Shown here piece after piece: positions 2,329-19,310 of a stretch of 27,627 nucleotides of DNA. Position 1 is the stretch's first letter. Each line of letters starts with the position of its first letter. The position numbers and the translations under genes were made by a program. The notes under the pieces are model-generated. The model did no database searches. It was not told where the DNA came from and saw nothing but the letters and a program-made list of their open reading frames with translations. This DNA is from a virus (Duplodnaviria > Heunggongvirae > Uroviricota > Caudoviricetes), in IMG/VR virus record IMGVR_UViG_2531839130_000010. The stretch is one strand, 5' to 3'.

Positions 2329-2489
2329 CCTAGTTTTCCCAAGTCAACCCACATCAACAAAATCATTTAAAAACATATATATTACGTTGTTTTCATACGT
2401 TTGAGGTCAACCCTTGTCTCTTGAAATCAACACGCGGTTGGGGGCACAATCAGGGGCATGTTCTGTTCGGTCTAGGAAATGTGCCCCCA

Positions 2490-3680
2490 ATGATGCTGAA
2501 TGCCCGCAAGGTTGAAGCTGCGAAAGGAAAAGAGAAGAGCTACAAGCTGTTTGATGGAGGTGGCCTATACCTTCAGGTCGAACCTAATGGCTCGCGTTAC
2601 TGGCGTATGAAATACCGTTTTGCTGGTAAAGAGAAACGATTGTCCTTTGGTGTTTATCCAACAGTCACACTTGCTGATGCCAGACAAAAACGAGAATACG
2701 CGAAGAAACTACTCGCAGCAGGTGAAGATCCCGGCGAAGTCAAAAAAGCCAAAAAGCAGGCTTTAAATGCAGCGAGTGAGACACTTAACCCATTCAGAGA
2801 AGTGGCGTTAGAGTGGCACAAAATGAAATCACCCAAATGGTCTGAGGGCTATGCTTCCGACATCATTGAGGCATTCGAGAAAGACATTTTCCCGCATATT
2901 GGGCACAGACCTATAGCTGATATTCAGCCCCTTGAACTGCTTGAAGTTCTGAGGTTGATAGAAGCTCGAGGCGCTATGGAGAAAGCGAAGAAAGTCCGTC
3001 AGCGATGCGGTGAAGTTTTTCGCTATGCCATCGTAACGGGTAGGGCAATCTACAATCCGGCACCGGATCTTGCCAGTGCGATGCAAGGACATGAAGCAGT
3101 CCACTATCCATTCCTCAAAGCCAACGAACTACCGGAGTTCTTTAATGCCCTTAATTCTTATTCAGGAAGTCCAATTGTATTGTTGGGGGCGCATTTACTT
3201 ATCCTGACAGGTCTACGAACTGGAGAACTACGAGCAGGTGAGTGGCGAGAGGTGGATTTTGATAATGCGGTGTGGGAGATCCCAAAAGAACGTATGAAAA
3301 TGCGTAGGAGCCATATTGTCCCGTTGTCAAAACAAGCATTATCCCATCTCAAAAGTTTGAAAGAACTAACTGGGAACTACCCGCTGATGTTCCCTGGACG
3401 CAACGATCCCAGCAAATTTATGAGTGAAGCAAGCATTAATCAGGTGTTTAAACGTATTGGATATGCAGGGCGTGTTACGGGGCATGGTTTCAGGCATACG
3501 ATGAGTACAATCCTACATGAGAAAGGATTTAACAGCGCTTGGATTGAAACCCAGCTTGCTCATTCGGACAAAAACTCTATTCGTGGAATTTATAACCATG
3601 CCCAATATCTCGAAGGGAGAAGAGAAATGATGCAATGGTATGCTAATTATTTATCTGAGCAAATTGGTACTCATAAATGA
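2490..3680 (+). CDS. int: P4-type tyrosine integrase (about 396 aa from the ATG at 2490)
   Basis: N-terminal P4-integrase signature KVEAAKGKEKSYKLFDGGGLYLQVEPNGSRYWRMKYRFAGKEKRL; catalytic HGFRHTMST (HxxR) and C-terminal Tyr region. Track start 2421 is a TTG. Confidence 0.9.
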   Translation: MMLNARKVEAAKGKEKSYKLFDGGGLYLQVEPNGSRYWRMKYRFAGKEKRLSFGVYPTVTLADARQKREYAKKLLAAGEDPGEVKKAKKQALNAASETLNPFREVALEWHKMKSPKWSEGYASDIIEAFEKDIFPHIGHRPIADIQPLELLEVLRLIEARGAMEKAKKVRQRCGEVFRYAIVTGRAIYNPAPDLASAMQGHEAVHYPFLKANELPEFFNALNSYSGSPIVLLGAHLLILTGLRTGELRAGEWREVDFDNAVWEIPKERMKMRRSHIVPLSKQALSHLKSLKELTGNYPLMFPGRNDPSKFMSEASINQVFKRIGYAGRVTGHGFRHTMSTILHEKGFNSAWIETQLAHSDKNSIRGIYNHAQYLEGRREMMQWYANYLSEQIGTHK

Positions 3681-4501
3681 ATATTTTAAAAATTAATAAT
3701 ACTGATTCTCTGCTCAGAGATTACTACCAGTTGGATGAAGCTTCAGAAAAAATTGGTTGTAGTGAAAAGGATATACTCTGGTTTGCCAGAGAACGAGATG
3801 TAGAGCTATGCATGGAATTCCATGATGATGAGTATGATGTTTCATGTGGTTTGAAGATTGATGGTCAAATAGATGAGTTCTTATCTAATCTGAAATATTT
3901 ACCACGAGATAGAAATGGCAATATTATGTTGTCAGACTTAAGTTCTATAAGAATCCCTGATGAAGATAATTTAATTGATAAAAATGGTTTTATTCGATGC
4001 TTCATATCCGGTTTATGGGCTGTTGATTATGAATATAAAGATCTGTTAGTTAAGCATGAGGGGCAACCGGATTCCTGGCCTATTCATTTTCTACTGGCGG
4101 GTACGCCTAATATAAATTGTAAGGTAATTCTTTATGTAAATTATGATGAAAAAGAAAATTATTATCTTTTTGAGGTTTTGTGGATTACAAAGGTACAGAT
4201 TCAAAAATTCATTGATATAGTCTTATGCGAACAAAAGCGGATAAAAAACGCCAATAAATATAAATCACAATCTGAGGCGCAAAAACAAAAACATGCTGTT
4301 CCTCGAGCTGAAATACTCATGGCTATTATTTCGCTCTATCATCGTGATATGAGGCTAAGAAGAGAGAGTCCAGCAGCGATAGCTGATTATCTTTTTCAAC
4401 ATGCCAGTGAGTTCTGGCCTAAGACCGGAGAACCGCCTTTGAGCTATGATACTGTTGTTAGTTTGCTACGTAGTTGCATGAAAAACATTAAGTTTAACTA
4501 A
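3677..4501 (+). CDS. Hypothetical protein (274 aa), AT-rich orphan cargo gene between int and alpA
   Basis: ORF track; ATG overlaps the int stop (ATGA); composition visibly more AT-rich than the flanking P4-like backbone; no motif I can recognise. Confidence 0.5.
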   Translation: MNILKINNTDSLLRDYYQLDEASEKIGCSEKDILWFARERDVELCMEFHDDEYDVSCGLKIDGQIDEFLSNLKYLPRDRNGNIMLSDLSSIRIPDEDNLIDKNGFIRCFISGLWAVDYEYKDLLVKHEGQPDSWPIHFLLAGTPNINCKVILYVNYDEKENYYLFEVLWITKVQIQKFIDIVLCEQKRIKNANKYKSQSEAQKQKHAVPRAEILMAIISLYHRDMRLRRESPAAIADYLFQHASEFWPKTGEPPLSYDTVVSLLRSCMKNIKFN

Positions 4502-4626
4502 ATATTAACAATTGTTGTGGCTAATGATTTTGAATTTTTTTCATTAGTCACATTTTTCTCATTTATAACCTATGTTTTAATTTTCCGTGTTGAAGCCAAT
4601 AGACTTAGATAAACGGAGAATGATGA

Positions 4627-4917
4627 ATGTTATCTAAACATGATAATACTACTTTGCAACGACCTTCAATGGATTCTCTGATCGATATGAAGTTTATTAC
4701 TTCCAATTGTTTATTAAGTGATAAATGGATTTATCGATTGATTTCTCTGAATCGCTTTCCAAAACCTATAAAAATAGGTCGGATGTCACGATGGCGCGCT
4801 GCTGATTATTATAAGTGGCGAGATGGGTTTGAAGAAAACTCAGGTCAACAGTTTGAGGGGATGAGAAATAAGGCAAGAGCAATTAATAAAGGGAATAGAT
4901 TATCACCTACTCCCTAA
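4627..4917 (+). CDS. alpA: AlpA-family phage transcriptional regulator / excisionase-like protein
   Basis: Core LLSDKWIYRLISLNRFPKPIKIGRMSRWRAADYYKWRD resembles AlpA-type HTH (RFPKP motif, conserved W after HTH); GGAG RBS 8 nt upstream of the ATG. Confidence 0.7.
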   Translation: MLSKHDNTTLQRPSMDSLIDMKFITSNCLLSDKWIYRLISLNRFPKPIKIGRMSRWRAADYYKWRDGFEENSGQQFEGMRNKARAINKGNRLSPTP

Positions 4918-4949
4918 GCCTTAATTGATAGTTAGTAATATTTAACTGA

Positions 4950-5123
4950 TTAGCCTTTAGGGTCAATCCCGCGTGATTGGAGTTCTTTGCGTAAAATTCT
5001 TTTAATCCAAGTTGCCAACGCGCTATCTCCATCTTTGCGCATTTCGTTTTCGAGTTGCAACCTAAAATCGTCGGTAAGACGCATTTGGAATGGTGGAGAA
5101 CGTTTCTCTTGTGGTGTTGACAT
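4950..5123 (-). CDS. Small ribbon-helix-helix (Arc/MetJ-like) DNA-binding protein, 57 aa (below ORF-track cutoff)
   Basis: Manual translation of minus strand: MSTPQEKRSPPFQMRLTDDFRLQLENEMRKDGDSALATWIKRILRKELQSRGIDPKG; beta-strand then two helices typical of RHH. The overlapping plus-strand ORF 4987-5187 looks non-protein-like. Confidence 0.5.
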   Translation of the reverse strand: MSTPQEKRSPPFQMRLTDDFRLQLENEMRKDGDSALATWIKRILRKELQSRGIDPKG

Positions 5124-5163
5124 GGTAATTACCCTAGAATATGATGACTACATGGTAATTACC
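5117..5163 (+). promoter_or_regulatory. Candidate sigma70 promoter (TTGACA-17 bp-TATGAT) with two copies of the palindrome GGTAATTACC (operator-like)
   Basis: TTGACA 5117-5122, TATGAT 5140-5145; 15-mer direct repeat (g/t)ACATGGTAATTACC at 5119-5133 and 5149-5163, each containing the perfect 10-bp palindrome GGTAATTACC, 30 bp apart; overlaps the start of the RHH gene. Confidence 0.45.
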
Positions 5164-5254
5164 ATTGTAAGTATAGTTCGCTTGTAAAAGCAATGCCCGA
5201 TTGTGCGGGAACACAAATCGGGCATTTAACCAACCGTTATAAGAGGTAACGAAG

Positions 5255-5431
5255 ATGGCTAAACAGAAGTGTACCTGGTTATTTGCGGCGATCAACCGCA
5301 GTCAACGCAATGCCCGTCCTGTGATGTTAAGGATCACCGCAGATAACGAGCGGTCAGCGCGGCGCAGACTTGCCCCGGACTATGTACTGAGCTTTGCCGG
5401 GCGCATTCCCTGCGGAGGTGAACATGCGTAA
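5255..5431 (+). CDS. Small protein (58 aa), possibly Icd/Ash-like P4-family protein
   Basis: Manual translation MAKQKCTWLFAAINRSQRNARPVMLRITADNERSARRRLAPDYVLSFAGRIPCGGEHA; AAGAGG RBS upstream. Family assignment is from memory only. Confidence 0.45.
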   Translation: MAKQKCTWLFAAINRSQRNARPVMLRITADNERSARRRLAPDYVLSFAGRIPCGGEHA

Positions 5432-5783
5432 TTATCCGCATCCCGGCGAACGCTGGCAGCATGAACGTGGCTGGACGGTCACGATTATCCGATTAATAGA
5501 AGCCTCGCCCTCTGTGGCGCTGGTTAATCCTGAATTCAGCTGTGAAGTGCTGATACGTCATGACAGCGACAACCAGCTTTCTTCCTGCCCTCTGGCATGG
5601 TTTGAACAGCGATATACGCGCCTGTTTGATGTACCACTCTTTAAGCCTGCACCAGCTCCTGCAGGCGGTAGTGGTTCCGGCCCGCTGACACTGCATCCGT
5701 CTGTGCTATTTATCCGCTGGCGGGAGCGTAGCATATGGCGTTCTGCTGAGCCTGATGACGGTCACTATTCAAAGTTTCTCTGA
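5424..5783 (+). CDS. Hypothetical P4-like protein (about 119 aa from the ATG at 5424)
   Basis: ORF track (5394 start is a TTG); ATG at 5424 has a GGAGGTG RBS and overlaps the upstream stop (ATGCGTAA), suggesting translational coupling. Confidence 0.5.
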   Translation: MRNYPHPGERWQHERGWTVTIIRLIEASPSVALVNPEFSCEVLIRHDSDNQLSSCPLAWFEQRYTRLFDVPLFKPAPAPAGGSGSGPLTLHPSVLFIRWRERSIWRSAEPDDGHYSKFL

Positions 5784-6099: not shown

Positions 6100-6479
6100 A
6101 CCAGCCGCAGGTTTCCATTTTCCCGGCAGAAATGACCACCGCGCTTTACCGGCGGGCTATTGCTTCAGCATGGCGGCAGAAAATGCTGAACGAAACTGGC
6201 AGTGATCAGTATGGTCCGCACAGCCTGACGGTGGAGCGTATTGAAATGGCCATTGCGCTGCATATCGAGTGCGTACTGATTAACGAGTACGGCGAAGCAC
6301 AGGGCGCCGCTGCCGCGCTGGCACTGCTGACTGACATGCTGGAGCCGTCACTGCTGACCGCGCCGCCGGTACTGACCGCGCGCGGCTGTGAAGTGATGGC
6401 GGAGATGTACCGCACGCTTCCGGCGGCCTTTGATGACTTCTGCAGTACCGGTGTGACGTTGTATCAGGGGGAAGTATGA
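6096..6479 (+). CDS. Hypothetical protein (127 aa)
   Basis: ORF track; AGGAGG RBS; ATGA overlaps with neighbours on both sides (operon). Confidence 0.5.
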   Translation: MNQPQVSIFPAEMTTALYRRAIASAWRQKMLNETGSDQYGPHSLTVERIEMAIALHIECVLINEYGEAQGAAAALALLTDMLEPSLLTAPPVLTARGCEVMAEMYRTLPAAFDDFCSTGVTLYQGEV

Positions 6480-9148
6480 CAATACAGACGGTTACGCAGA
6501 TTTCAGCCGCCGCACGGGGGAAATGGCCCGTTATTCTCCAGATGCTGCGTATTGATGTACCTGAAAACGGCAGGCACGGTCCCTGCCCGAAATGTGGGGG
6601 CAAGGATCGTTTTCGCCTTGATGACCTTGACGGGCGCGGGACGTGGATCTGCAGCCAGTGTGGCAATGGTGACGGTCTGGATCTGGTTAAGCTCGTAACC
6701 GGTTACAGCATCAGAAAGGCTGCGCAGGAGGTGGCGCAGGTGCTTAATGTGCCGGATGTGCAGGAACTGCCTGTTAAGCCTGCCAGACAAAAAGCCCCTA
6801 AACGCGACATGGGTCTTACCGTGGCGGCGCTGATGAAAGAGAGCCACACGGGAGAAAGCGCCTATCTGACAGGAAAAGGGTTCGCCGGATACCCGGCCTC
6901 TCTGACCGGAAGCGTGCAGCATATCAGCGGTAAGGATTTTCCTGCCGGTTCCCTGCTGTTACCACTCACGACCAACACCGGAGCCGTGACTGGTGCACAG
7001 CTTATCGCCCCGACGGGTGAAAAAAGCATACTGCCCGGCAGCACGATGAAAGGCGCGTTTGTGTCGCTCAGCCCGTTACCGTCTGAACCACCGGTACAGG
7101 TGGTGATTACCGAAGGTTACGCTACGGCGCTGACGGTAAGTCAGCTCACTGCCGGATGCGTAGTGGCTGCCATATCTGCGGGCAACCTGCCCAATGTGGC
7201 GCAGTCGCTGCGGGCACGCTGGCCTGAGGTAAAAATTATCATCGCCGGTGATAACGATTTTCAGGACGGAGGTGAGAATCCCGGCAGAGCCTTTGCTGAA
7301 CGGGCGGCAAAAGCTGTTGGCGGCTGGATGACGCTGCCACCAGGAGAGATTAAGGCTGACTGGAATGACTTTCATCGGGAGCACGGTATTACCCGTGCCC
7401 GTGAAGCCTTTCGCAACGGTCTGGTACTGTGCGGGGAAGGCCGCACGCAACTGCCGCACGGGTTCCGTCTTACCCAGGAATATCTCTGGTATGAAAAGCA
7501 GGTACAGCGCAACGGTGAGACGGAGATCCAGAACGTCAAAATATGCAGCCCGCTGCGCGTGACGGCAATCACCTGCGATGCCGATGGCGGTAACTTCGGA
7601 CGACTGCTGGAATGGGAAGATACGTGGGGTGAGTGTCGCCGCTGGGCGATGCCGATGGAAATGCTGAGCGGCAGTGGTGAGGAACTGCGCCGGGTACTGC
7701 TGGTTAACGGGCTGTCTTATATCAGCACCACCGGTGAGGCACGCGCACGCCTGATGGAATATATCTCACTGTGTAAACCGGAACGCCGCGTGACCTGCGT
7801 CAGTCGTACTGGCTGGCATGGTCAGGTTTACGTCCTGCAGGATGAGGTCAGCGGTGAAGGTGCAGAGGGTGTCATTCTCCAGACCACTTCCGTGCAGGGG
7901 CGTGATTTCCGCGTGTCGGGCACAACAGAGGAATGGCGGGAGCATGTATCCCGCTACTGTACCGGCAACTCCCGCGTGGCATTTGCTGTCAGCCTGGCCT
8001 TTGCTGCACCACTGTTACGGCTGGTTGGTATGGACGGCGGCGGCTACCACCTCAAAGGGGAATCGACAGACGGTAAGACCACCACCATGAAAGCGGCAAC
8101 CTCCGTCTGCGGCGGGCCTGACTACTGGCAGACATGGCGGGCCACCGGCAACGCGCTGGAGGGATGCGCCAGCCGCCGCAACGATGCCGCCATGATGCTT
8201 GATGAGATCCGGGAAGTTGACGGACGCGAGGCAGGCAATATCGCCTACATGCTGGCAAACGGTCAGGGCAAGGGCCGTGCCGGTACGGACGGTGAGCTGC
8301 GTACCCGTAAGCAGTGGCGCCTGTTGTTCTTTTCAACTGGCGAGTTGTCTCTGACCGAACATGCGGCAAAGGCCGGTGAGCGTACTTTTGCCGGGATGGA
8401 AGTCAGGATGATCCAGATCCCCAGCGATTCCGGGAAGTTTGGCGTTTTTGAGGAGCTGCACGGCTTCGACAGCGGCAAGGCTCTGGCAGAGCATCTTGAA
8501 TGGGCCACGTCCTGCTACTACGGTTCGCCGTTCCGGGAGTGGCTGAAAGCACTGACCGCTGATCTTAACGGACTAACGGCACAGGCAAAATCGCTGATGA
8601 AGGAATATGCTGCCGCCCTGACTCCGAAAGATGCAGGCAATCAGGTGGGCCGGGCTGTGAACCGCTTTGCTCTGGTGGCGATGGCAGGTGAACTGGCAAC
8701 CCGTCTGGGTATCACCGGCTGGCCTGAGGGTGAAGCACTGCGGGCAACCCGCGTCTGCCTGAACGCATGGCTGAAAGATCGCGGGCACACCGCCAATCAG
8801 GAAGATATCGCCGCACTGGAGCAGGTTCGCAGTTTCTTCACCGCGAATCAGTACAGCCGCTTTGCAGACTGGTATGACGAGCGCAACCGCCCCGGCAATA
8901 TGGTGGGCTGGCGCAGGGTGGAGAAAGGCAGTACCGCGCAGGGCACGGAAGCTGTCACTACGTTCTATGTCATGCCGTCCGGCTGGAAAGAAATCTGCAG
9001 GGGATTTGACCCGCGCAAGGTGGCGCGTCTGTGCGCAGATCGTGGATACCTGCTGCCCTCCACTGATGGCAAACTCCAGACAACCATTCGCCCGCCAGAG
9101 ATGAATCCCCGCAGGCTCTATGTCTTCAACAGCGAGGTGCCGGGTTAA
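6476..9148 (+). CDS. P4 alpha-type primase-helicase (890 aa)
   Basis: N-terminal zinc-binding CPKCGGKD...CSQCG; Toprim-like VVITEGYATA ... IIIAGDNDFQDGGENPG; C-terminal helicase Walker A GESTDGKTT and Walker B-like MMLDEIRE. Confidence 0.9.
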   Translation: MTIQTVTQISAAARGKWPVILQMLRIDVPENGRHGPCPKCGGKDRFRLDDLDGRGTWICSQCGNGDGLDLVKLVTGYSIRKAAQEVAQVLNVPDVQELPVKPARQKAPKRDMGLTVAALMKESHTGESAYLTGKGFAGYPASLTGSVQHISGKDFPAGSLLLPLTTNTGAVTGAQLIAPTGEKSILPGSTMKGAFVSLSPLPSEPPVQVVITEGYATALTVSQLTAGCVVAAISAGNLPNVAQSLRARWPEVKIIIAGDNDFQDGGENPGRAFAERAAKAVGGWMTLPPGEIKADWNDFHREHGITRAREAFRNGLVLCGEGRTQLPHGFRLTQEYLWYEKQVQRNGETEIQNVKICSPLRVTAITCDADGGNFGRLLEWEDTWGECRRWAMPMEMLSGSGEELRRVLLVNGLSYISTTGEARARLMEYISLCKPERRVTCVSRTGWHGQVYVLQDEVSGEGAEGVILQTTSVQGRDFRVSGTTEEWREHVSRYCTGNSRVAFAVSLAFAAPLLRLVGMDGGGYHLKGESTDGKTTTMKAATSVCGGPDYWQTWRATGNALEGCASRRNDAAMMLDEIREVDGREAGNIAYMLANGQGKGRAGTDGELRTRKQWRLLFFSTGELSLTEHAAKAGERTFAGMEVRMIQIPSDSGKFGVFEELHGFDSGKALAEHLEWATSCYYGSPFREWLKALTADLNGLTAQAKSLMKEYAAALTPKDAGNQVGRAVNRFALVAMAGELATRLGITGWPEGEALRATRVCLNAWLKDRGHTANQEDIAALEQVRSFFTANQYSRFADWYDERNRPGNMVGWRRVEKGSTAQGTEAVTTFYVMPSGWKEICRGFDPRKVARLCADRGYLLPSTDGKLQTTIRPPEMNPRRLYVFNSEVPG

Positions 9149-9182
9149 GGCTTTGCGTGAGTCTTATTTATTAAGGGTAACA

Positions 9183-9370
9183 GGTGAAACAGGTGGAACA
9201 ACCGTATTTTACAGGGCTGAACCTGTTCCACCTTCTGAAATAGTGAGGTGGAACAGATGTAACGCCAGCCAATCCGCTGTTCCACCTTGTTACCCGCGAT
9301 GTTCCACCGGTGCAGTGTATATAAATGTCTTATAAAACAAAGCTGTAACACATGTTTCACCTGTTCCACC
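9183..9370. repeat. Iteron cluster: 8 copies of TGTT(C/T)CACC in both orientations (candidate crr/ori-type replication element)
   Basis: Copies at 9183-9191(-), 9192-9200(-), 9224-9232(+), 9247-9255(-), 9278-9286(+), 9300-9308(+), 9353-9361(+), 9362-9370(+), immediately downstream of the primase gene. Confidence 0.6.
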
Positions 9371-9458
9371 GCATCAGGGACATAAAGCAGACTGAAACAG
9401 AGGGCATTTTTATCTGGCTGGCTTTCATAGCCACGTCTGAATAACCGCAAGCGCCCGT

Positions 9459-9514
9459 TGTGCCAGCCACCACACACTGAACACCGATAGTGTGCTTGTG
9501 TCAGCCACGACACA
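9459..9514 (+). promoter_or_regulatory. Two TGT-N12-ACA dyads (Ogr/Delta-type activator boxes) upstream of the sid-like gene; candidate late promoter
   Basis: TGTgccagccaccacACA at 9459-9476 and TGTgtcagccacgacACA at 9497-9514, sharing a cagccac core; the sid-like ATG is at 9549. Confidence 0.4.
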
Positions 9515-9548
9515 ATTGACGTAACGAACCAACCCGACAGGAGAAGTC

Positions 9549-10292
9549 ATGAACAATACCGCAGTAAATAACAACCTTTCCACTTTTCCGGCTGTAACGC
9601 AGCGGGCACTGGAAACCATGAACACAGCCAGAAACGCATGGCTTGAAGCACGTCGTCAGCAGAAAGCGGCAGCGGATAATATTGCGACAATCCGCCAGCG
9701 TCGCGCTGAAATGGAAGCCACGACGAACACACTGAATGAGGAGTGGCGCACGCTGTTTCGTGAAAGTCAGGGCGTGGTCTCAAAGGAAATGAAAAAACTG
9801 CGCACGGAAATTGCGCTGGGACGAGAAACGCTTGAGGATTTTGATGAGCTGCTGGCGGCTCAGGAAAGCGAAAATGCACTTTTGCCGCAGAAAGCTGCAG
9901 AATTAGCCGGAAAGTATATCCACGCGCATAACATTCTTGTGGATATTCGCGCAAAACAAATCTGGGAGGATTTTATGCAGTCGCATGGAAAAGCGCTTAT
10001 TCAGACGCTGAGCCTGCTTAAATCCACAATGGGCCGGGAAGCCAGTGCCGTTGTGGGTGTGGTGAATTCAGTTAATGACCCGGACACAGTGCTGAAAGAC
10101 TTTATTCATAAACATATCACCAGACCGGCTCTGGCTAACGATGCGATGCCTGAGCAGGACCCGGTGTTTAAACTGGCGGGAGTTGCCCCGGATTATGCGG
10201 CGCGTCTGGATTTCAGTAATCAACTCTCTCCGGCAGCTATGCATAAAATTAAGGTTCGTCAGGAACTTGCTGAGAAGGAGAAAGCAGTATGA
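9549..10292 (+). CDS. Sid-like (capsid size determination) protein candidate, 247 aa
   Basis: Position after primase/iterons and before psu-like and delta genes; size close to P4 Sid; helical, charged sequence; AGGAGA RBS. No motif-level proof. Confidence 0.4.
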   Translation: MNNTAVNNNLSTFPAVTQRALETMNTARNAWLEARRQQKAAADNIATIRQRRAEMEATTNTLNEEWRTLFRESQGVVSKEMKKLRTEIALGRETLEDFDELLAAQESENALLPQKAAELAGKYIHAHNILVDIRAKQIWEDFMQSHGKALIQTLSLLKSTMGREASAVVGVVNSVNDPDTVLKDFIHKHITRPALANDAMPEQDPVFKLAGVAPDYAARLDFSNQLSPAAMHKIKVRQELAEKEKAV

Positions 10293-10840
10293 CGGCCCGA
10301 GGCACGCCTGACCAGGCACTTACCAGTTTTCGGAATGCCCGCATTCTGTGGGCCGGACATAATGAGAGCCGAAAAGCCGTTGAACAACAGATAACATCTC
10401 TCCTCGCTGCCACAGAAAAACCAGCAGATTATGCCCGACAGCTCGAATTACTGCGGGAACGTCTGGATGTGCTGAAATGGCAAATTAACTGTGCTGCGCG
10501 CGAATGCATTTACTCGCAGCATTTACTGATGGAGGCCTGCACAGAAGCCGCTCTCAGCAATTTTATGCAGGCGAATGGGGCAGCCCTGACATCTGCACTG
10601 GCTCCGTTCCTGAAGGGGCGCGGAGGGGTTGACGTTGCGTCCCGTATATTACGCAGTGCTCTGGTTCGCCAGCTGGCAATAACACCGCCTGAAATTGCTG
10701 GGGATTATCGTGAGATCCTGGATGAATCCGGTTTGATGCCTGACCCCGGGATGATTCGTGATTGCCAGGGTTCTTACACCCCGGCACAACATCTGCGTTT
10801 TCAGCAACGCCTGAATGACATTAACGATATACAGGAGTGA
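10289..10840 (+). CDS. Psu-like (polarity suppression) protein candidate, 183 aa
   Basis: Size and position next to the Ogr/Delta gene as in P4-like elements; AGGAGA RBS; start overlaps upstream stop. Assignment by synteny only. Confidence 0.4.
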   Translation: MTARGTPDQALTSFRNARILWAGHNESRKAVEQQITSLLAATEKPADYARQLELLRERLDVLKWQINCAARECIYSQHLLMEACTEAALSNFMQANGAALTSALAPFLKGRGGVDVASRILRSALVRQLAITPPEIAGDYREILDESGLMPDPGMIRDCQGSYTPAQHLRFQQRLNDINDIQE

Positions 10841-10845
10841 TATTA

Positions 10846-11118
10846 ATGGCACTTAAATGTCCGGAATGCGGTACAGTTGCACACGCCAGAACAGCAGCCT
10901 ATGAAGCTCCGTCAGTTAAACGCTCGTGGTATCAGTGCCAGAATCTGGAATGTTCCTGCACATTTACGGCACTGGAGAGTGTGGATAAGATAATCATGAA
11001 ACCCCGGCGCAATGAACAGGAACCAGACAAATCACAACCCCCGGTAAAACAACAGCAAACGCTCAATCGCTATGGCTCCGCGTCAAAACTGTCAAGCCGT
11101 CAGCAGATTCCTGTCTGA
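10846..11118 (+). CDS. Ogr/Delta-family zinc-finger late-gene transcriptional activator (90 aa from ATG 10846)
   Basis: MALKCPECGTVAHARTAAYEAPSVKRSWYQCQNLECSCTF has the C-x2-C ... C-x4-C spacing and HART motif of P2 Ogr / P4 Delta; AGGAG RBS 8 nt upstream. Track start 10837 is a GTG. Confidence 0.8.
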   Translation: MALKCPECGTVAHARTAAYEAPSVKRSWYQCQNLECSCTFTALESVDKIIMKPRRNEQEPDKSQPPVKQQQTLNRYGSASKLSSRQQIPV

Positions 11119-11512: not shown

Positions 11513-12790
11513 ATGAACCGTCAGCCGTTTACTTCAGCAGCACTTAAACGAAACTTAAGTGAAAGTGAGAAGGCTTATTATTTTAAAAAAAATAATGTTG
11601 CTGAGTTAGAATCATTAATTAGTGATGCCGTTTTAATTGCTAATGAGAATTTTCGCTCTGGTGTGAGTGTAAAGAAACTAAATATTAAGGGACGCTGCGT
11701 TTACACTGCTTCATGTTTGAAGGAAAAAATAATACTTAGACATTGCAATGCAAATTTAAAATGCCTTGAATCGCTTCGTCCCAAACAACGAAATACAATA
11801 ATTAGTGAGCTTAAAATTTATTTGGAAGAAGGTACTCCATTCAAAATATATCGTTTGGATATAAAGTCTTTCTTTGAATCAATTGATTTACCGCAGCTTT
11901 TTCAGCTCTTACATAACGAAACACGACTGTCTAGACATACAAAAAATTTGCTAGAATGGTATCTTAAATCGTGTGAAAGGCTTCACTCTTCGAAAGGATT
12001 ACCTAGAGGGTTAGAAATTAGTCCTATGTTATCAGAATTGTACTTGGCACAATTTGATAATAGTATTCATAGGCATCCAGAAGTATTTTATTATTCAAGA
12101 TTTGTAGATGATATGGTAATCGTTTCAAGTGGTTGTGAATGTGAAGCGTCCTTTATGGAATTTATACAAGATGTATTACCAAAGGGATTGGCTTTAAATA
12201 AAAATAAATTAAAAATATCTCCATGCATACCAAAGAGAAGTAAGGGTTTAAATAAACAGGATAAATTGCTTCATGAATTTGACTTTCTAGGGTACTCGTT
12301 TTCTATAATAGACACACCTTTGAGCAAAGATGGTGAGATTAATAGCTGTTACAGAAAGGTTGTTGTTAATTTATCTAAATCTCGCCTGAAGAAAATTAAA
12401 ACAAGAATAGCTAGGTCTTTCTACTCTTATCATATTAATGGTGATTTTAAACTATTGCTAGACAGGATTTCTTTTTTGACTAGTAACAGGGATTTAAATC
12501 GCAAAATAAAATCGTTAAGTTCTTTAGAAAAAAGCAAGATAAGTACAGGTATTTATTACAGTAATGCGAAGTTAGATGTTGACTCCATATCCCTAAAAAA
12601 ATTAGATGACTTTTTGCTATATTGTGTGCAATCTAATACTGGGCGTTTGAATAGTGTTGCAAAAAAACCTTTTAATTTGAAGCAAAAAAAAGAACTGCTA
12701 AGAAATAGTTTTAGAAAAGGCTTTGTGGATAGAGTATATAGAAAGTATAACTTTAAGCGCTATACTGAGATTACAAAAATATGGTTATAA
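11513..12790 (+). CDS. Reverse transcriptase, 425 aa (UG3-like; first gene of a DRT type 3-like pair)
   Basis: RT motifs read directly: YRLDIKSFFESI (motif 1/2), GLPRGLEISPMLSELYL (motif 4), RFVDDMVIV (catalytic motif 5), FLGYSF (motif 7). Strongly AT-rich versus the P4 backbone; stop overlaps next gene start. Confidence 0.8.
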   Translation: MNRQPFTSAALKRNLSESEKAYYFKKNNVAELESLISDAVLIANENFRSGVSVKKLNIKGRCVYTASCLKEKIILRHCNANLKCLESLRPKQRNTIISELKIYLEEGTPFKIYRLDIKSFFESIDLPQLFQLLHNETRLSRHTKNLLEWYLKSCERLHSSKGLPRGLEISPMLSELYLAQFDNSIHRHPEVFYYSRFVDDMVIVSSGCECEASFMEFIQDVLPKGLALNKNKLKISPCIPKRSKGLNKQDKLLHEFDFLGYSFSIIDTPLSKDGEINSCYRKVVVNLSKSRLKKIKTRIARSFYSYHINGDFKLLLDRISFLTSNRDLNRKIKSLSSLEKSKISTGIYYSNAKLDVDSISLKKLDDFLLYCVQSNTGRLNSVAKKPFNLKQKKELLRNSFRKGFVDRVYRKYNFKRYTEITKIWL

Positions 12791-14799
12791 AGAAAAACAT
12801 TAAACTTGATAAGAAAGATTATCTCAGGGCTTTACTATGTGATACACTGCCCGGTGATTGTCCAATTATTTTTTCAAATGATGGCTTATATATAAACTTA
12901 ACAGAATATGATAGAGTTTGTAATGATTTGTTACATTTTACTCCGGTTTCTTCTTTCTTAAAAAAAATAGTTAACCCTAATTTAGACTCTTCTATTAGTG
13001 TCGCAGATCGCCACCGAGAAAAGAAGAAACAAAGCTCCCCATTTGGCTATTGTATAGTAAAAGATGCCTTTAGCCAAAGACATCTTTCTTTAATTCACCC
13101 AAGATCTCAAATTAATTATTCGGAATTTTATAAAACATACTCATCCGTTATCACATTAAATACTTTAAAAAGTAATTTTTCTATTCGCTACCCACGTAAG
13201 GTCGCTAACTCTTTCTTTTTATATGAAAATAATGCTTTGGAAAAATATAAAGGGGAAGATATCGAAACAACAAAGGATGAGTTAATGAGGAAATATTCAT
13301 CCTCTTATTTTAGTTATGGCGGTTTCAACAGGATATATAAACTATTTCAAAGTAAGATGTTTATTGAGCTTGAGAAAAGATTCTCGGTGATGTGGATGTT
13401 AGATGTATCACATTGTTTTGATAGCATATATACGCATTCGGTTTCTTGGGCATTAAAAAATAAATCATATATAAAAAAACATGTTAAACACAGCAATCAA
13501 TTTGGACAAGAATTAGATACACTGATGCAACGTAGCAATAATAATGAAACAAATGGAATACCTATTGGTTCAGAGTTTAGCAGGGTTTTTGCAGAATTAA
13601 TATTTCAGCGAATTGATTGCAATATTGAGTCATGCCTTCTTAGTGAACATGGATGGGTTAATAATAAAGATTATGTTATATTGAGATATGTAGATGATTT
13701 TATTGTTTTTTGTAATGGTGAGTCAAGTGCCGAAGTTATTACAAAAATAATTAATGTGAAGTTAAATGAATATAATCTACAATTAAATGTAAACAAGCTT
13801 AAGAAGTATTCTAGGCCATTTTGCACTAGCAAGACAAGTTTGATTGTCAAAGTTAATGAATTAATTCGCAATTTAGAAATTAAACTGTATGAAAAACGTG
13901 ATAGTGGCTTTACTTTAAATAAAATAAGAAGTAAGCATGATTTAAAGATATATGTAATTAATCATGTCAAGTCTATATGCATTGAAAATCAAGTGTCTTA
14001 TTCTGATGTTTCATCATATATAATATCATCTCTTTCCAAAAGATTAATATCAATAATTGATATATTACGAGTTCAAGAAAATGAAGATGATGTAGATGTA
14101 AAAAAAAGGATTAAGGACTTAATTTTCACAATAACCGATATTATGTTGTTCTTTTTCAGTGTTAACCCAACTGTTTCATCATCTTATAAATTATCAAAGA
14201 CAATGGTTGTTGTTAATAACTATTTGAATGAAATATCTAGTGACTATAGTAGTATTTTTATGACTACGTTAGTGAATGCTGCGGAAAACATTAATTTTGG
14301 TGAGAATGATAATGGGCTGTTTATTGATGATTTCATTTCAATTGAAAAGGTTAATTTAATCTTGGCTGCTACTTTTTTTGGAGATAATTATCTTATAAGT
14401 GACAGTTTTTTTCATGGAGTTATACATAAAAAGAAATTGGACTACTTTACTATAATCTCACTGCTATTCTATTTTAGAAACAGAAGATCATTCCGAAAAT
14501 TGAAGTGTATAATAGAGGGTGAAATAAAGGAAATATTAAGTTCTAATATGGATTTGCTGCAATCATCGGAAAAGGCACATTTATTTTTGGATGTCATGTC
14601 ATGTCCATTTGTCTCAATAGAGACAAGGCGTTTTTTATATAGAAAATATCTCAAGAGCTATGAGCCAAAGCTGAACAGAAGTCATCTGGAGATTGAGAAT
14701 GATTTGCAATCTCTGCTTCAAACATATTGGTTTGTCAAGTGGGATGAGTTAGATATTGTGAAAATGATTGAGAAAAAAGAATTGAAAGAAAGCTATTAA
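12781..14799 (+). CDS. Reverse transcriptase, 672 aa (UG8-like; second gene of a DRT type 3-like pair)
   Basis: RT motifs: MLDVSHCFDSI (motif 2), GIPIGSEFSRVFAELIF (motif 4), RYVDDFIVF (catalytic motif 5), LQLNVNKLKKY (motif 6); long N- and C-terminal extensions; 10-bp overlap with the upstream RT gene. Confidence 0.8.
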   Translation: MVIKKNIKLDKKDYLRALLCDTLPGDCPIIFSNDGLYINLTEYDRVCNDLLHFTPVSSFLKKIVNPNLDSSISVADRHREKKKQSSPFGYCIVKDAFSQRHLSLIHPRSQINYSEFYKTYSSVITLNTLKSNFSIRYPRKVANSFFLYENNALEKYKGEDIETTKDELMRKYSSSYFSYGGFNRIYKLFQSKMFIELEKRFSVMWMLDVSHCFDSIYTHSVSWALKNKSYIKKHVKHSNQFGQELDTLMQRSNNNETNGIPIGSEFSRVFAELIFQRIDCNIESCLLSEHGWVNNKDYVILRYVDDFIVFCNGESSAEVITKIINVKLNEYNLQLNVNKLKKYSRPFCTSKTSLIVKVNELIRNLEIKLYEKRDSGFTLNKIRSKHDLKIYVINHVKSICIENQVSYSDVSSYIISSLSKRLISIIDILRVQENEDDVDVKKRIKDLIFTITDIMLFFFSVNPTVSSSYKLSKTMVVVNNYLNEISSDYSSIFMTTLVNAAENINFGENDNGLFIDDFISIEKVNLILAATFFGDNYLISDSFFHGVIHKKKLDYFTIISLLFYFRNRRSFRKLKCIIEGEIKEILSSNMDLLQSSEKAHLFLDVMSCPFVSIETRRFLYRKYLKSYEPKLNRSHLEIENDLQSLLQTYWFVKWDELDIVKMIEKKELKESY

Positions 14800-15191: not shown

Positions 15192-15218
15192 GTTCGACTC
15201 CTATTATCGGCACCATCA
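15192..15218 (+). repeat. attR core of the P4-like element: second copy of the 27-bp tRNA-Thr 3'-end repeat
   Basis: Exact copy of 2302-2328; no tRNA body upstream of it. Confidence 0.8.
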
Positions 15219-17756: not shown

Positions 17757-18147
17757 ATACTATAATTAAACTACAATTAAACTATATAATATAATTCTTT
17801 TTTATCTTTATAAGAATAATTATAGGGATACCCGTTAGGGAGTCTAACGACTATCCCTTAATCTATTGGCATTCGCCAGAACCTTGCACAAGTTAGAGTG
17901 TTAGTCGTTAGACTGCTTGTCATAACACATAGTTTTTGTTTGTTGATGTTAGTTAGTAGATCTATGTTCGCTAATGCCGCTCACAACGAATATGTAATCT
18001 ACTATGTGCAAATAGCCTACGGCTTGCGTAAGGCTAAATAGTCTTGCGCTGTGCGCTTCAATAGTTCCATTGATGAGGCTTATGATCTTACCCAGCAATA
18101 GTGGACACGCGGCTAAGTGAGTAAACTCTCAGTCAGAGGTGACTCAC

Positions 18148-18447
18148 ATGACAAAAACAGTATCAACCAGTAAAAAACCCCGTAAACAGCATTCGCCTGA
18201 ATTTCGCAGTGAAGCCCTGAAGCTTGCTGAACGCATCGGTGTTACTGCCGCAGCCCGTGAACTCAGCCTGTATGAATCACAACTCTACAACTGGCGCAGT
18301 AAACAGCAAAATCAGCAGACGTCTTCTGAACGTGAACTGGAGATGTCTACCGAGATTGCACGTCTCAAACGCCAGCTGGCAGAACGGGATGAAGAGCTGG
18401 CTATCCTCCAAAAGGCCGCGACATACTTCGCGAAGCGCCTGAAATGA
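18148..18447 (+). CDS. insE: IS3 transposase OrfA (HTH DNA-binding subunit)
   Basis: [28 protein letters not shown]... recognised as IS3 OrfA; ATG at 18148 with GAGGTG RBS (track start 18139 is a GTG). Confidence 0.9.
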
Positions 18448-19310
18448 AGTATGTCTTTATTGAAAAACATCAGGCTGAGTTCAGCATCAAAGCAATGTGC
18501 CGCGTGCTCCGGGTGGCCCGCAGCGGCTGGTATACGTGGTGTCAGCGGCGGACAAGGATAAGCACGCGTCAGCAGTTCCGCCAACACTGCGACAGCGTTG
18601 TCCTCGCGGCTTTTACCCGGTCAAAACAGCGTTACGGTGCCCCACGCCTGACGGATGAACTGCGTGCTCAGGGTTACCCCTTTAACGTAAAAACCGTGGC
18701 GGCAAGCCTGCGCCGTCAGGGACTGAGGGCAAAGGCCTCCCGGAAGTTCAGCCCGGTCAGCTACCGCGCACACGGCCTGCCTGTGTCAGAAAATCTGTTG
18801 GAGCAGGATTTTTACGCCAGTGGCCCGAACCAGAAGTGGGCAGGAGACATCACGTACTTACGTACAGATGAAGGCTGGCTGTATCTGGCAGTGGTCATTG
18901 ACCTGTGGTCACGTGCCGTTATTGGCTGGTCAATGTCGCCACGCATGACGGCGCAACTGGCCTGCGATGCCCTGCAGATGGCGCTGTGGCGGCGTAAGAG
19001 GCCCCGGAACGTTATCGTTCACACGGACCGTGGAGGCCAGTACTGTTCAGCAGATTATCAGGCGCAACTGAAGCGGCATAATCTGCGTGGAAGTATGAGC
19101 GCAAAAGGTTGCTGCTACGATAATGCCTGCGTGGAAAGCTTCTTTCATTCGCTGAAAGTGGAATGTATCCATGGAGAACACTTTATCAGCCGGGAAATAA
19201 TGCGGGCAACGGTGTTTAATTATATCGAATGTGATTACAATCGGTGGCGGCGGCACAGTTGGTGTGGCGGCCTCAGTCCGGAACAATTTGAAAACAAGAA
19301 CCTCGCTTAG
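18444..19310 (+). CDS. insF: IS3 transposase OrfB (DDE catalytic subunit)
   Basis: 288-aa IS3 OrfB with integrase-core DDE region (WAGDITYL ... HTDRGGQY ... [11 protein letters not shown]); overlaps OrfA as in IS3. Confidence 0.9.

Follow-up and report, generated by a model that had tools for sequence, protein, structure and literature searches.

The intergenic DNA that directly follows the primase-helicase gene of a P4-like satellite very probably constitutes the replication origin of this element. It combines an array of short iterons with an AT-rich stretch, in the manner of the SaPI/PICI satellites, and would be bound at this single site by the satellite's own DUF927 initiator. We think that it is best read as a putative origin of the DUF927/SaPIbov Rep class that resides within a P4-like satellite and whose initiator carries a fused primase of the P4 type. 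Other phage satellites are known to have origins of this kind, and the array described here is a fairly ordinary instance.

The window, i.e. the whole stretch of DNA that was analysed, comprises 27,627 nt and contains exactly eight matches to TGTTYCACC (GGTG(G/A)AACA on the opposite strand). Every one of them lies within 9183-9370, while dinucleotide-preserving shuffles (n = 100) contained 0.46 matches on average and never more than 3, so that none of them reached eight. The strand order of the copies is - - + - + + + +, and two pairs abut directly (9183-9191/9192-9200 and 9353-9361/9362-9370), together forming one 18-nt inverted repeat. The stop codon of the primase-helicase gene ends at position 9148, and from there it is 35 nt to the first strict copy. 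The first-pass annotation had described eight copies in both orientations with two abutting pairs, placed immediately downstream of the primase gene, and all of this is borne out. With a looser word pattern derived from related loci, which was used to look for degenerate copies and for a second cluster, three degenerate copies are added at 9174-9182, 9288-9296 and 9344-9352. The first of these starts 26 nt after the stop codon. By this looser pattern the array thus totals 11 copies over 9174-9370, and each end is made of three abutting 9-mers in inverted orientation.

Reading on from the stop codon, the region opens with a 17-nt leader on the + strand (CTTTGCGTGAGTCTTAT, 9151-9167) that precedes the first iteron. 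This leader is nearly invariant in an alignment of eight loci, among which three iteron words are in use, with an identity of 72-100% compared to 44-50% for the spacers. The left triplet of abutting 9-mers occupies 9174-9200 on the - strand and reads, on the + strand, AGGGTAACA (the degenerate copy), GGTGAAACA and GGTGGAACA. It is followed by an iteron TGTTCCACC at 9224-9232 (+), the flipped copy at around +78 that is kept in nearly all relatives, and at 9247-9264 (-) by an iteron GGTGGAACA (9247-9255) with a decayed copy GATGTAACG (9256-9264) next to it. In the alignment the decayed copy is intact in the close relatives L004 and L042, where it forms a second copy GGTGGAACAGGTGGAACG. Three co-oriented copies are located on the + strand between 9278 and 9308, namely TGTTCCACC (9278), the degenerate TGTTACCCG (9288) and TGTTCCACC (9300). 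The right triplet at 9344-9370 (+) consists of TGTAACACA (degenerate), TGTTTCACC and TGTTCCACC, and is inverted with respect to the left one (inverted repeats I1 and I3). Between these two groups of copies lies the only long gap in the array, an AT-rich stretch at 9309-9343 that we propose as the site of DNA melting; the GC fraction is 0.25 at 9320-9359 and the position of low GC is common to most relatives. The stretch is off-centre, with eight copies to its left and three to its right, and the copies immediately flanking it have the same orientation while the outer triplets are mutually inverted.

The array had also been said to lie in ORF-free DNA. Taken literally this does not hold, as two mechanical ORFs overlap it (71 aa, 9120-9335, + strand; 122 aa, 9145-9513, - strand), but neither is annotated in the RefSeq copies and, with no reading frame open throughout the relatives, we rejected both as coding sequences. 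No Rfam family matched the window at gathering thresholds. A promoter and terminator scan over 9000-9700 found no terminator, and the sole promoter-like match (9653-9680) is placed within the sid-like gene, outside the intergenic region.

By its gene content, the element carrying the array is a P4-like satellite of about 12.9 kb integrated in the E. coli chromosome. It is bracketed by a 27-nt direct repeat GTTCGACTCCTATTATCGGCACCATCA at 2302-2328 and 15192-15218. The repeat resembles the 3′ end of a tRNA; ARAGORN detected no tRNA gene in the window. According to Pfam and RefSeq, the genes form a series in one direction: integrase (2421-3680), AlpA-like, Icd-like, DUF5375, primase-helicase, then the array, followed by Sid-like, Psu, Ogr/Delta and Drt3a/Drt3b. 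Present among the core genes of P4-like satellites are thus the integrase, an AlpA-like protein, the alpha-like primase, a Psu-like protein at the sid position, Psu and Ogr/Delta, in addition to DUF5375. Pfam and the RefSeq annotation of the identical locus place the Sid-like gene, a weak match to the Psu family, at 9549-10292, psu at 10289-10840 and the ogr/delta-like gene at 10837-11118, all on the + strand. No epsilon homologue was identified in the satellite and blastn found no homologue of P4 cos in the window. The order int-alpA-alpha-sid-psu-delta in one direction is unlike the canonical arrangement of P4-like genes, which is divergent (PMC8628076). In the cargo position after delta, 11513-14799 encodes two proteins with reverse transcriptase domains that are the antiviral Drt3a and Drt3b in the identical RefSeq locus. 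A second tyrosine integrase gene (1115-2218, - strand) immediately to the left of the left att repeat suggests a neighbouring or tandem island remnant, and an IS element with HTH_21 and rve integrase-core domains is found outside the satellite at 18139-19310. The intergenic DNA with the array occurs in 328 of 5,426 complete E. coli genomes (~6%), nearly always on the chromosome.

The gene upstream of the array (6476-9148, + strand) encodes an 890-aa protein with the Pfam domains Zn_Ribbon_Prim, Toprim_3 and DUF927, the last with an E value of 2e-90. The primase part, made of a Zn ribbon and a Toprim domain, spans aa ~30-305 and the DUF927 helicase aa 330-612. A helical linker then leads to a winged helix at the C-terminus (aa 796-890, encoded by 8861-9145 on the + strand), which we propose as the reader of the iterons. 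In 20 homologues the Zn cysteines and the acidic Toprim residues are invariant, as is the Walker A motif GESTDGKTT. Residues 5-316 align with P4 alpha at 38% identity (BLASTP, E 1e-48) and the same two Pfam domains are found in both proteins. Beyond the primase, P4 alpha carries D5_N, DUF5906 and Pox_D5 where the 890-aa protein has DUF927 instead, and profile comparison detected no relationship to the alpha C-terminus (probability 0.07%). A phmmer search against the PDB matched aa 415-643 to the SaPI Rep structure 8tch (E 4.5e-15) and to SCCmec Cch (5dgk, E 2.8e-13). The helicase and the winged helix are assigned to the SaPIbov Rep/Cch (DUF927) class, the likeness to P4 alpha being limited to the N-terminal primase. 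We found no mention in the literature of DUF927 in P4-like satellites.

This assignment bears on whether the array is the start site at all. In P4, an iteron cluster directly downstream of alpha, crr, is needed besides ori, so there is a precedent for a cluster in just this position being auxiliary. The array could likewise be bound by the initiator and serve as an enhancer or in copy-number control or handcuffing, with replication starting elsewhere, for instance within the primase gene or at some site that escaped recognition, and the off-centre location of the AT-rich stretch would be compatible with such a role. Yet the scan for a second cluster of the 9-mer, proposed in the first-pass annotation, found none in the window, whether with exact, one-mismatch or degenerate patterns. 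Outside the array, one-mismatch matches to TGTTYCACC amount to three scattered singletons, within chance, and the density of the looser pattern is 0.77 per kb compared to 55 per kb inside the array. The relatives have no second cluster either. The helicase and reader domains are those of the SaPIbov Rep class, whose single origin sits exactly at this place, and the array is also located ~180 nt upstream of sid, which is the position of P4 ori. A crr-like auxiliary site thus seems improbable to us, and since no second cluster was found we favour a single origin over an ori and crr pair.

The primase-helicase family is large in the Enterobacterales, and related loci were compared. We assembled 55 loci, one per species, of which 50 contained sufficient downstream DNA, and arrays were sought by counting k-mers, without bias, over the 450 nt that follow the stop codon. 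An array was present in 49 of the 50 loci, at protein identities of 58-100%; the only locus lacking it is a decayed symbiont pseudogene. In 46 loci the array comes directly after the stop codon, with 6-12 copies in a common layout. Abutting copies lie at +26 to +52 from the stop codon, a flipped copy at about +78 and a pair at about +100/+110, and copies on the opposite strand extend to about +220 with an AT-rich gap at about +160 to +200. The 30-mer of lowest GC content lies at +155 to +172 in most relatives, including loci that use other words. In the remaining three loci (L039, L047 and L056) the array is found ~1 kb further on, behind an inserted tyrosine integrase gene. In L039 this integrase gene (6649-7656) splits the primase-helicase gene from an array of 10-11 copies of GTGGGAACA in the usual layout, as is also the case in L047 and L056.

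What differs among the relatives is the word itself. At least nine lineage-specific words are in use (GGTGGAACA, GGTGTAACA, GGGGTAACA, TGGGTAACA, CTGGTAACA, GTGGTAACA, GTGGGAACA, GTGGATACA and TGTACTACA), and the word of a given locus is present at 21 copies per kb in its array against 0.016 per kb elsewhere in the loci, where at most one stray copy is met with in ~10 kb. When arrays are aligned, the positions of the copies are kept and the same base is changed in every copy while the spacers drift. Between the window and L006, for example, the iteron columns are 88% identical and the spacers 50% (Fisher p = 6e-9). The array copies thus show concerted evolution.

The family also includes homologues with DUF927 only, devoid of Zn ribbon and Toprim domains, in L051 (a 693-aa ORF at 3614-5695) and L050, and these are followed by the same kind of array, which in L051 comprises 12 copies of GGTGGAACA. 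The primase domain is hence dispensable for the pairing of gene and array.

At the level of single residues there is a hint of covariation between word and protein. Residue ~866 is K with the GGTG, GGGG and TGGG words and R with the CTGG and GTGG words, even between proteins that are 96.5% identical, and positions 846, 861, 870 and 878 recur across four independent word-switch events. Such covariation is suggestive only: hypervariability marks the N-terminal linker throughout, and no more than 4-5 word switches are independent of one another. We replaced it by a comparison of whole regions in pairs of proteins that are 93-99.5% identical, eight pairs with different words (representing ~3-4 independent events) and 36 pairs with the same word. 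Residues 796-890 differ by 8.9% in the different-word pairs and by 1.9% in the same-word pairs, whereas the corresponding values are 6.0% and 4.3% for the primase, 1.3% and 0.8% for the helicase, and 1.6% and 2.0% for the helical linker. At the DNA level, the word-switch pairs display a local patch of divergence that reaches from some 150 nt before the stop codon to some 300 nt after it, with flanks that are 93-99% identical, while a same-word control pair is 99% identical across the same region. Against such a coupling stands the comparison of the window's protein group with that of L006 (91% identical), where most differences are in residues 1-200 and not in the winged helix. We conclude that the word co-varies with what is predicted to be its reader, the C-terminal winged helix of the initiator itself.

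In three genomes two members of the family are present, in Pantoea stewartii ATCC 8199 (L004/L046), Enterobacter intestinihominis CLA-AC-H004 (L042/L012) and Pantoea leporis R (L013/L052). The two co-resident copies carry different words in all three, too few cases for significance. This would fit selection against cross-talk, with the number of cases limited to three. It is tempting to go further and to regard the family as a set of naturally arisen pairs of initiator and origin, each orthogonal to the others. A few winged-helix residues (~846, 861, 866, 870 and 878) would then specify anew the first five bases of the 9-mer, and diversification would be driven by the avoidance of cross-talk between satellites present in one cell; this is speculative and, in our view, rather unlikely to hold.

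These comparisons also bear on the possibility that the repeats mainly control transcription, as an operator or roadblock acting on read-through out of the early/replication operon into sid-psu-delta, or in the control of the late promoter, bound by the initiator or by another regulator such as AlpA or Delta. The scan revealed no intrinsic terminator separating the primase gene from sid, and the array lies ~90 nt upstream of the late promoter, two observations that such a role would accommodate. The late promoter region contains two TGT-N12-ACA sites, the Ogr/Delta late-promoter consensus (PMC3931495), on the + strand at 9459-9514 upstream of the sid-like gene (direct repeat D4). The sites at 9459-9476 and 9497-9514 are part of 19-nt direct repeats (9458-9476 and 9496-9514) that are 38 nt apart, and precede the start codon of the sid-like gene by 35-90 nt. 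P4 has a late-promoter site TGTGTCAGGGCTGGCACA at the same distance from sid. The Delta-type sites are thus separately present outside the array and form a module distinct from the iterons. Moreover, many loci without detectable sid, psu and delta, as well as loci where the order of downstream genes differs, have an array behind the helicase gene, which ties the array to the helicase-initiator and not to the late promoter. Together with the co-variation between word and winged helix, this makes a mainly transcriptional function very improbable, although the array may have a secondary autoregulatory role.

CRISPR arrays consist of direct repeats of ~23-50 nt that all point the same way and alternate with unique spacers of regular length. 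The first-pass annotation had excluded a CRISPR array, rightly so given the 9-nt unit, the mixed orientation, the abutting copies and the irregular spacing. Non-functional repeats more generally, whether due to chance, selfish (REP/MITE-like), a slippage product or a degenerate CRISPR-like array, have nothing but bare repetition in their favour and are effectively refuted by the comparative data, with a layout kept across genera through concerted word changes, by the shuffles in which eight copies were never reached, and by copies that abut without spacers in a window empty of Rfam matches; we give this reading practically no weight.

We therefore return to an origin bound by its own initiator, for which the following sequence of events can be proposed. 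The winged helices of an oligomeric form of the protein would bind the 9-bp iterons GGTG(G/A)AACA, including the three abutting copies in inverted orientation at each end. The AT-rich stretch at 9309-9343 would then melt and the helicase could load itself there, after which the fused primase would prime synthesis. In this scheme a single site should suffice, unlike the separate ori and crr of P4.

A function can thus be proposed for an unannotated gap of 200 bp that is present in ~6% of complete E. coli genomes and in many Enterobacterales. The replication modules of P4-like satellites appear to be interchangeable, here with a P4-type primase joined to a helicase-initiator of the SaPIbov Rep type and a single origin. 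The relatives provide protein-site pairs whose sites differ by 1-2 bases and whose readers differ by a few residues, and such a series of reader-site switches might be used for studying how initiator-origin specificity evolves or for building orthogonal small replicons.

The first-pass annotation had proposed a replication element of the satellite read by the adjacent primase protein, in analogy to P4 alpha. The proposal as such is supported, at the level of sequence, by the conserved layout, the co-variation of word and winged helix, and the linkage to the gene. Taken as an analogy, the comparison with P4 holds, and the array would function much as the P4 iteron sites do. In the P4 record, type-1 repeats TGTTCACC are indeed annotated at both sites, crr lying next to the 3′ end of alpha and ori preceding sid by ~170 nt. 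The N-terminal primase domains are homologous and a DUF5375 gene is found upstream of the primase gene in both elements. Both elements likewise have iterons clustered right behind the primase gene and ~170-180 nt ahead of sid; here a single array fills the two relative positions because sid directly follows the primase gene. The words are also nearly the same, GGTGAACA in P4 and GGTG(G/A)AACA here, the latter being the P4 8-mer plus one base. By a rough estimate the chance of such a coincidence is ~3 in 1,000 across the words of the family. The likeness could possibly reflect a distant winged-helix homology, convergence, a constraint imposed by the shared primase, or origin DNA that was retained through a swap of the helicase. 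On the other hand, the part of the analogy that concerns the alpha protein does not extend beyond the primase, since the helicase and origin-binding parts of alpha are of the D5_N/DUF5906/Pox_D5 type and not DUF927, and P4 has two cis sites ~5 kb apart (ori and crr) compared to the single cluster here. The P4 8-mers are spaced 10-11 nt apart, in contrast to abutting 9-mers, and its early and late operons are divergent whereas all genes of the present satellite point in one direction. The exact P4 8-mer TGTTCACC has two scattered chance matches in the window against 11 in P4. The array thus lacks three defining features of the P4 replicon, the family of the helicase and origin-binding parts, the exact word and the bipartite organization into ori and crr.

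The SaPI Reps are initiator-helicases that load themselves. Their C-terminal winged helix recognises iterons, 6-12 in number, that directly follow rep and surround an AT-rich region, and in SaPI5 Pri and Rep are fused (PMC9371898). DUF927 (Cch, SaPIbov1 Rep) and D5_N (Cch2, SaPI5 Rep) represent two distinct classes of initiators with a common layout, and the primases of SaPIbov1 and SaPI5 are reported to be of the AEP type (PMC7581432). With the SaPIbov1 Rep/Cch class, the system described here shares the DUF927 helicase core, the C-terminal winged helix, an allele-dependent specificity, and a number of short iterons (eight strict, 11 in total) immediately 3′ of the gene that falls within the range of 6-12, together with an AT-rich stretch. 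The fusion of primase and helicase is as in SaPI5 PriRep. It differs from the SaPIs in that the primase is of the DnaG/Toprim type and a homologue of P4 alpha, in iterons of 9 bp instead of 5-6 nt, and in belonging to an Enterobacterales P4-like satellite with sid, psu and delta. The SaPI rule of a central AT-rich region with at least two opposite-pointing iterons on each side is followed in part, the stretch being off-centre here and its neighbouring copies co-oriented.

Among Gram-negative PICIs, the pri-rep-ori of EcCICFT073 is an experimentally validated replicon (PMC6092414). It has the same order int, alpA, pri-rep, ori in one direction, with the origin directly after the stop codon. The origin gap of E. 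coli CFT073 (L058, 3997-4284) is built in the same style, with abutting copies of (C)TGTCTACC in 9-bp phase, an AT-rich stretch and inverted copies. The two elements differ in their proteins, the EcCICFT073 Pri-Rep being of the D5_N/DUF5906/Pox_D5 type and unrelated to the 890-aa protein, and in that EcCICFT073 carries capsid and decoration genes instead of sid, psu and delta. A GGTnnACA-like shape is common to GGTGAACA of P4, GGTAGACA of EcCICFT073 and GGTGGAACA of this family even though the helicase and origin-binding parts are unrelated. It could stem from a common constraint outside these parts, imposed for instance by the shared primase domain or by some host factor. Alternatively, the origins could have been passed on through exchanges of the helicase module. 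For the array itself, the SaPI/PICI arrangement of rep followed by ori is a closer model than P4 crr, because both the helicase and the predicted DNA-reading domain are of the SaPIbov Rep/Cch class.
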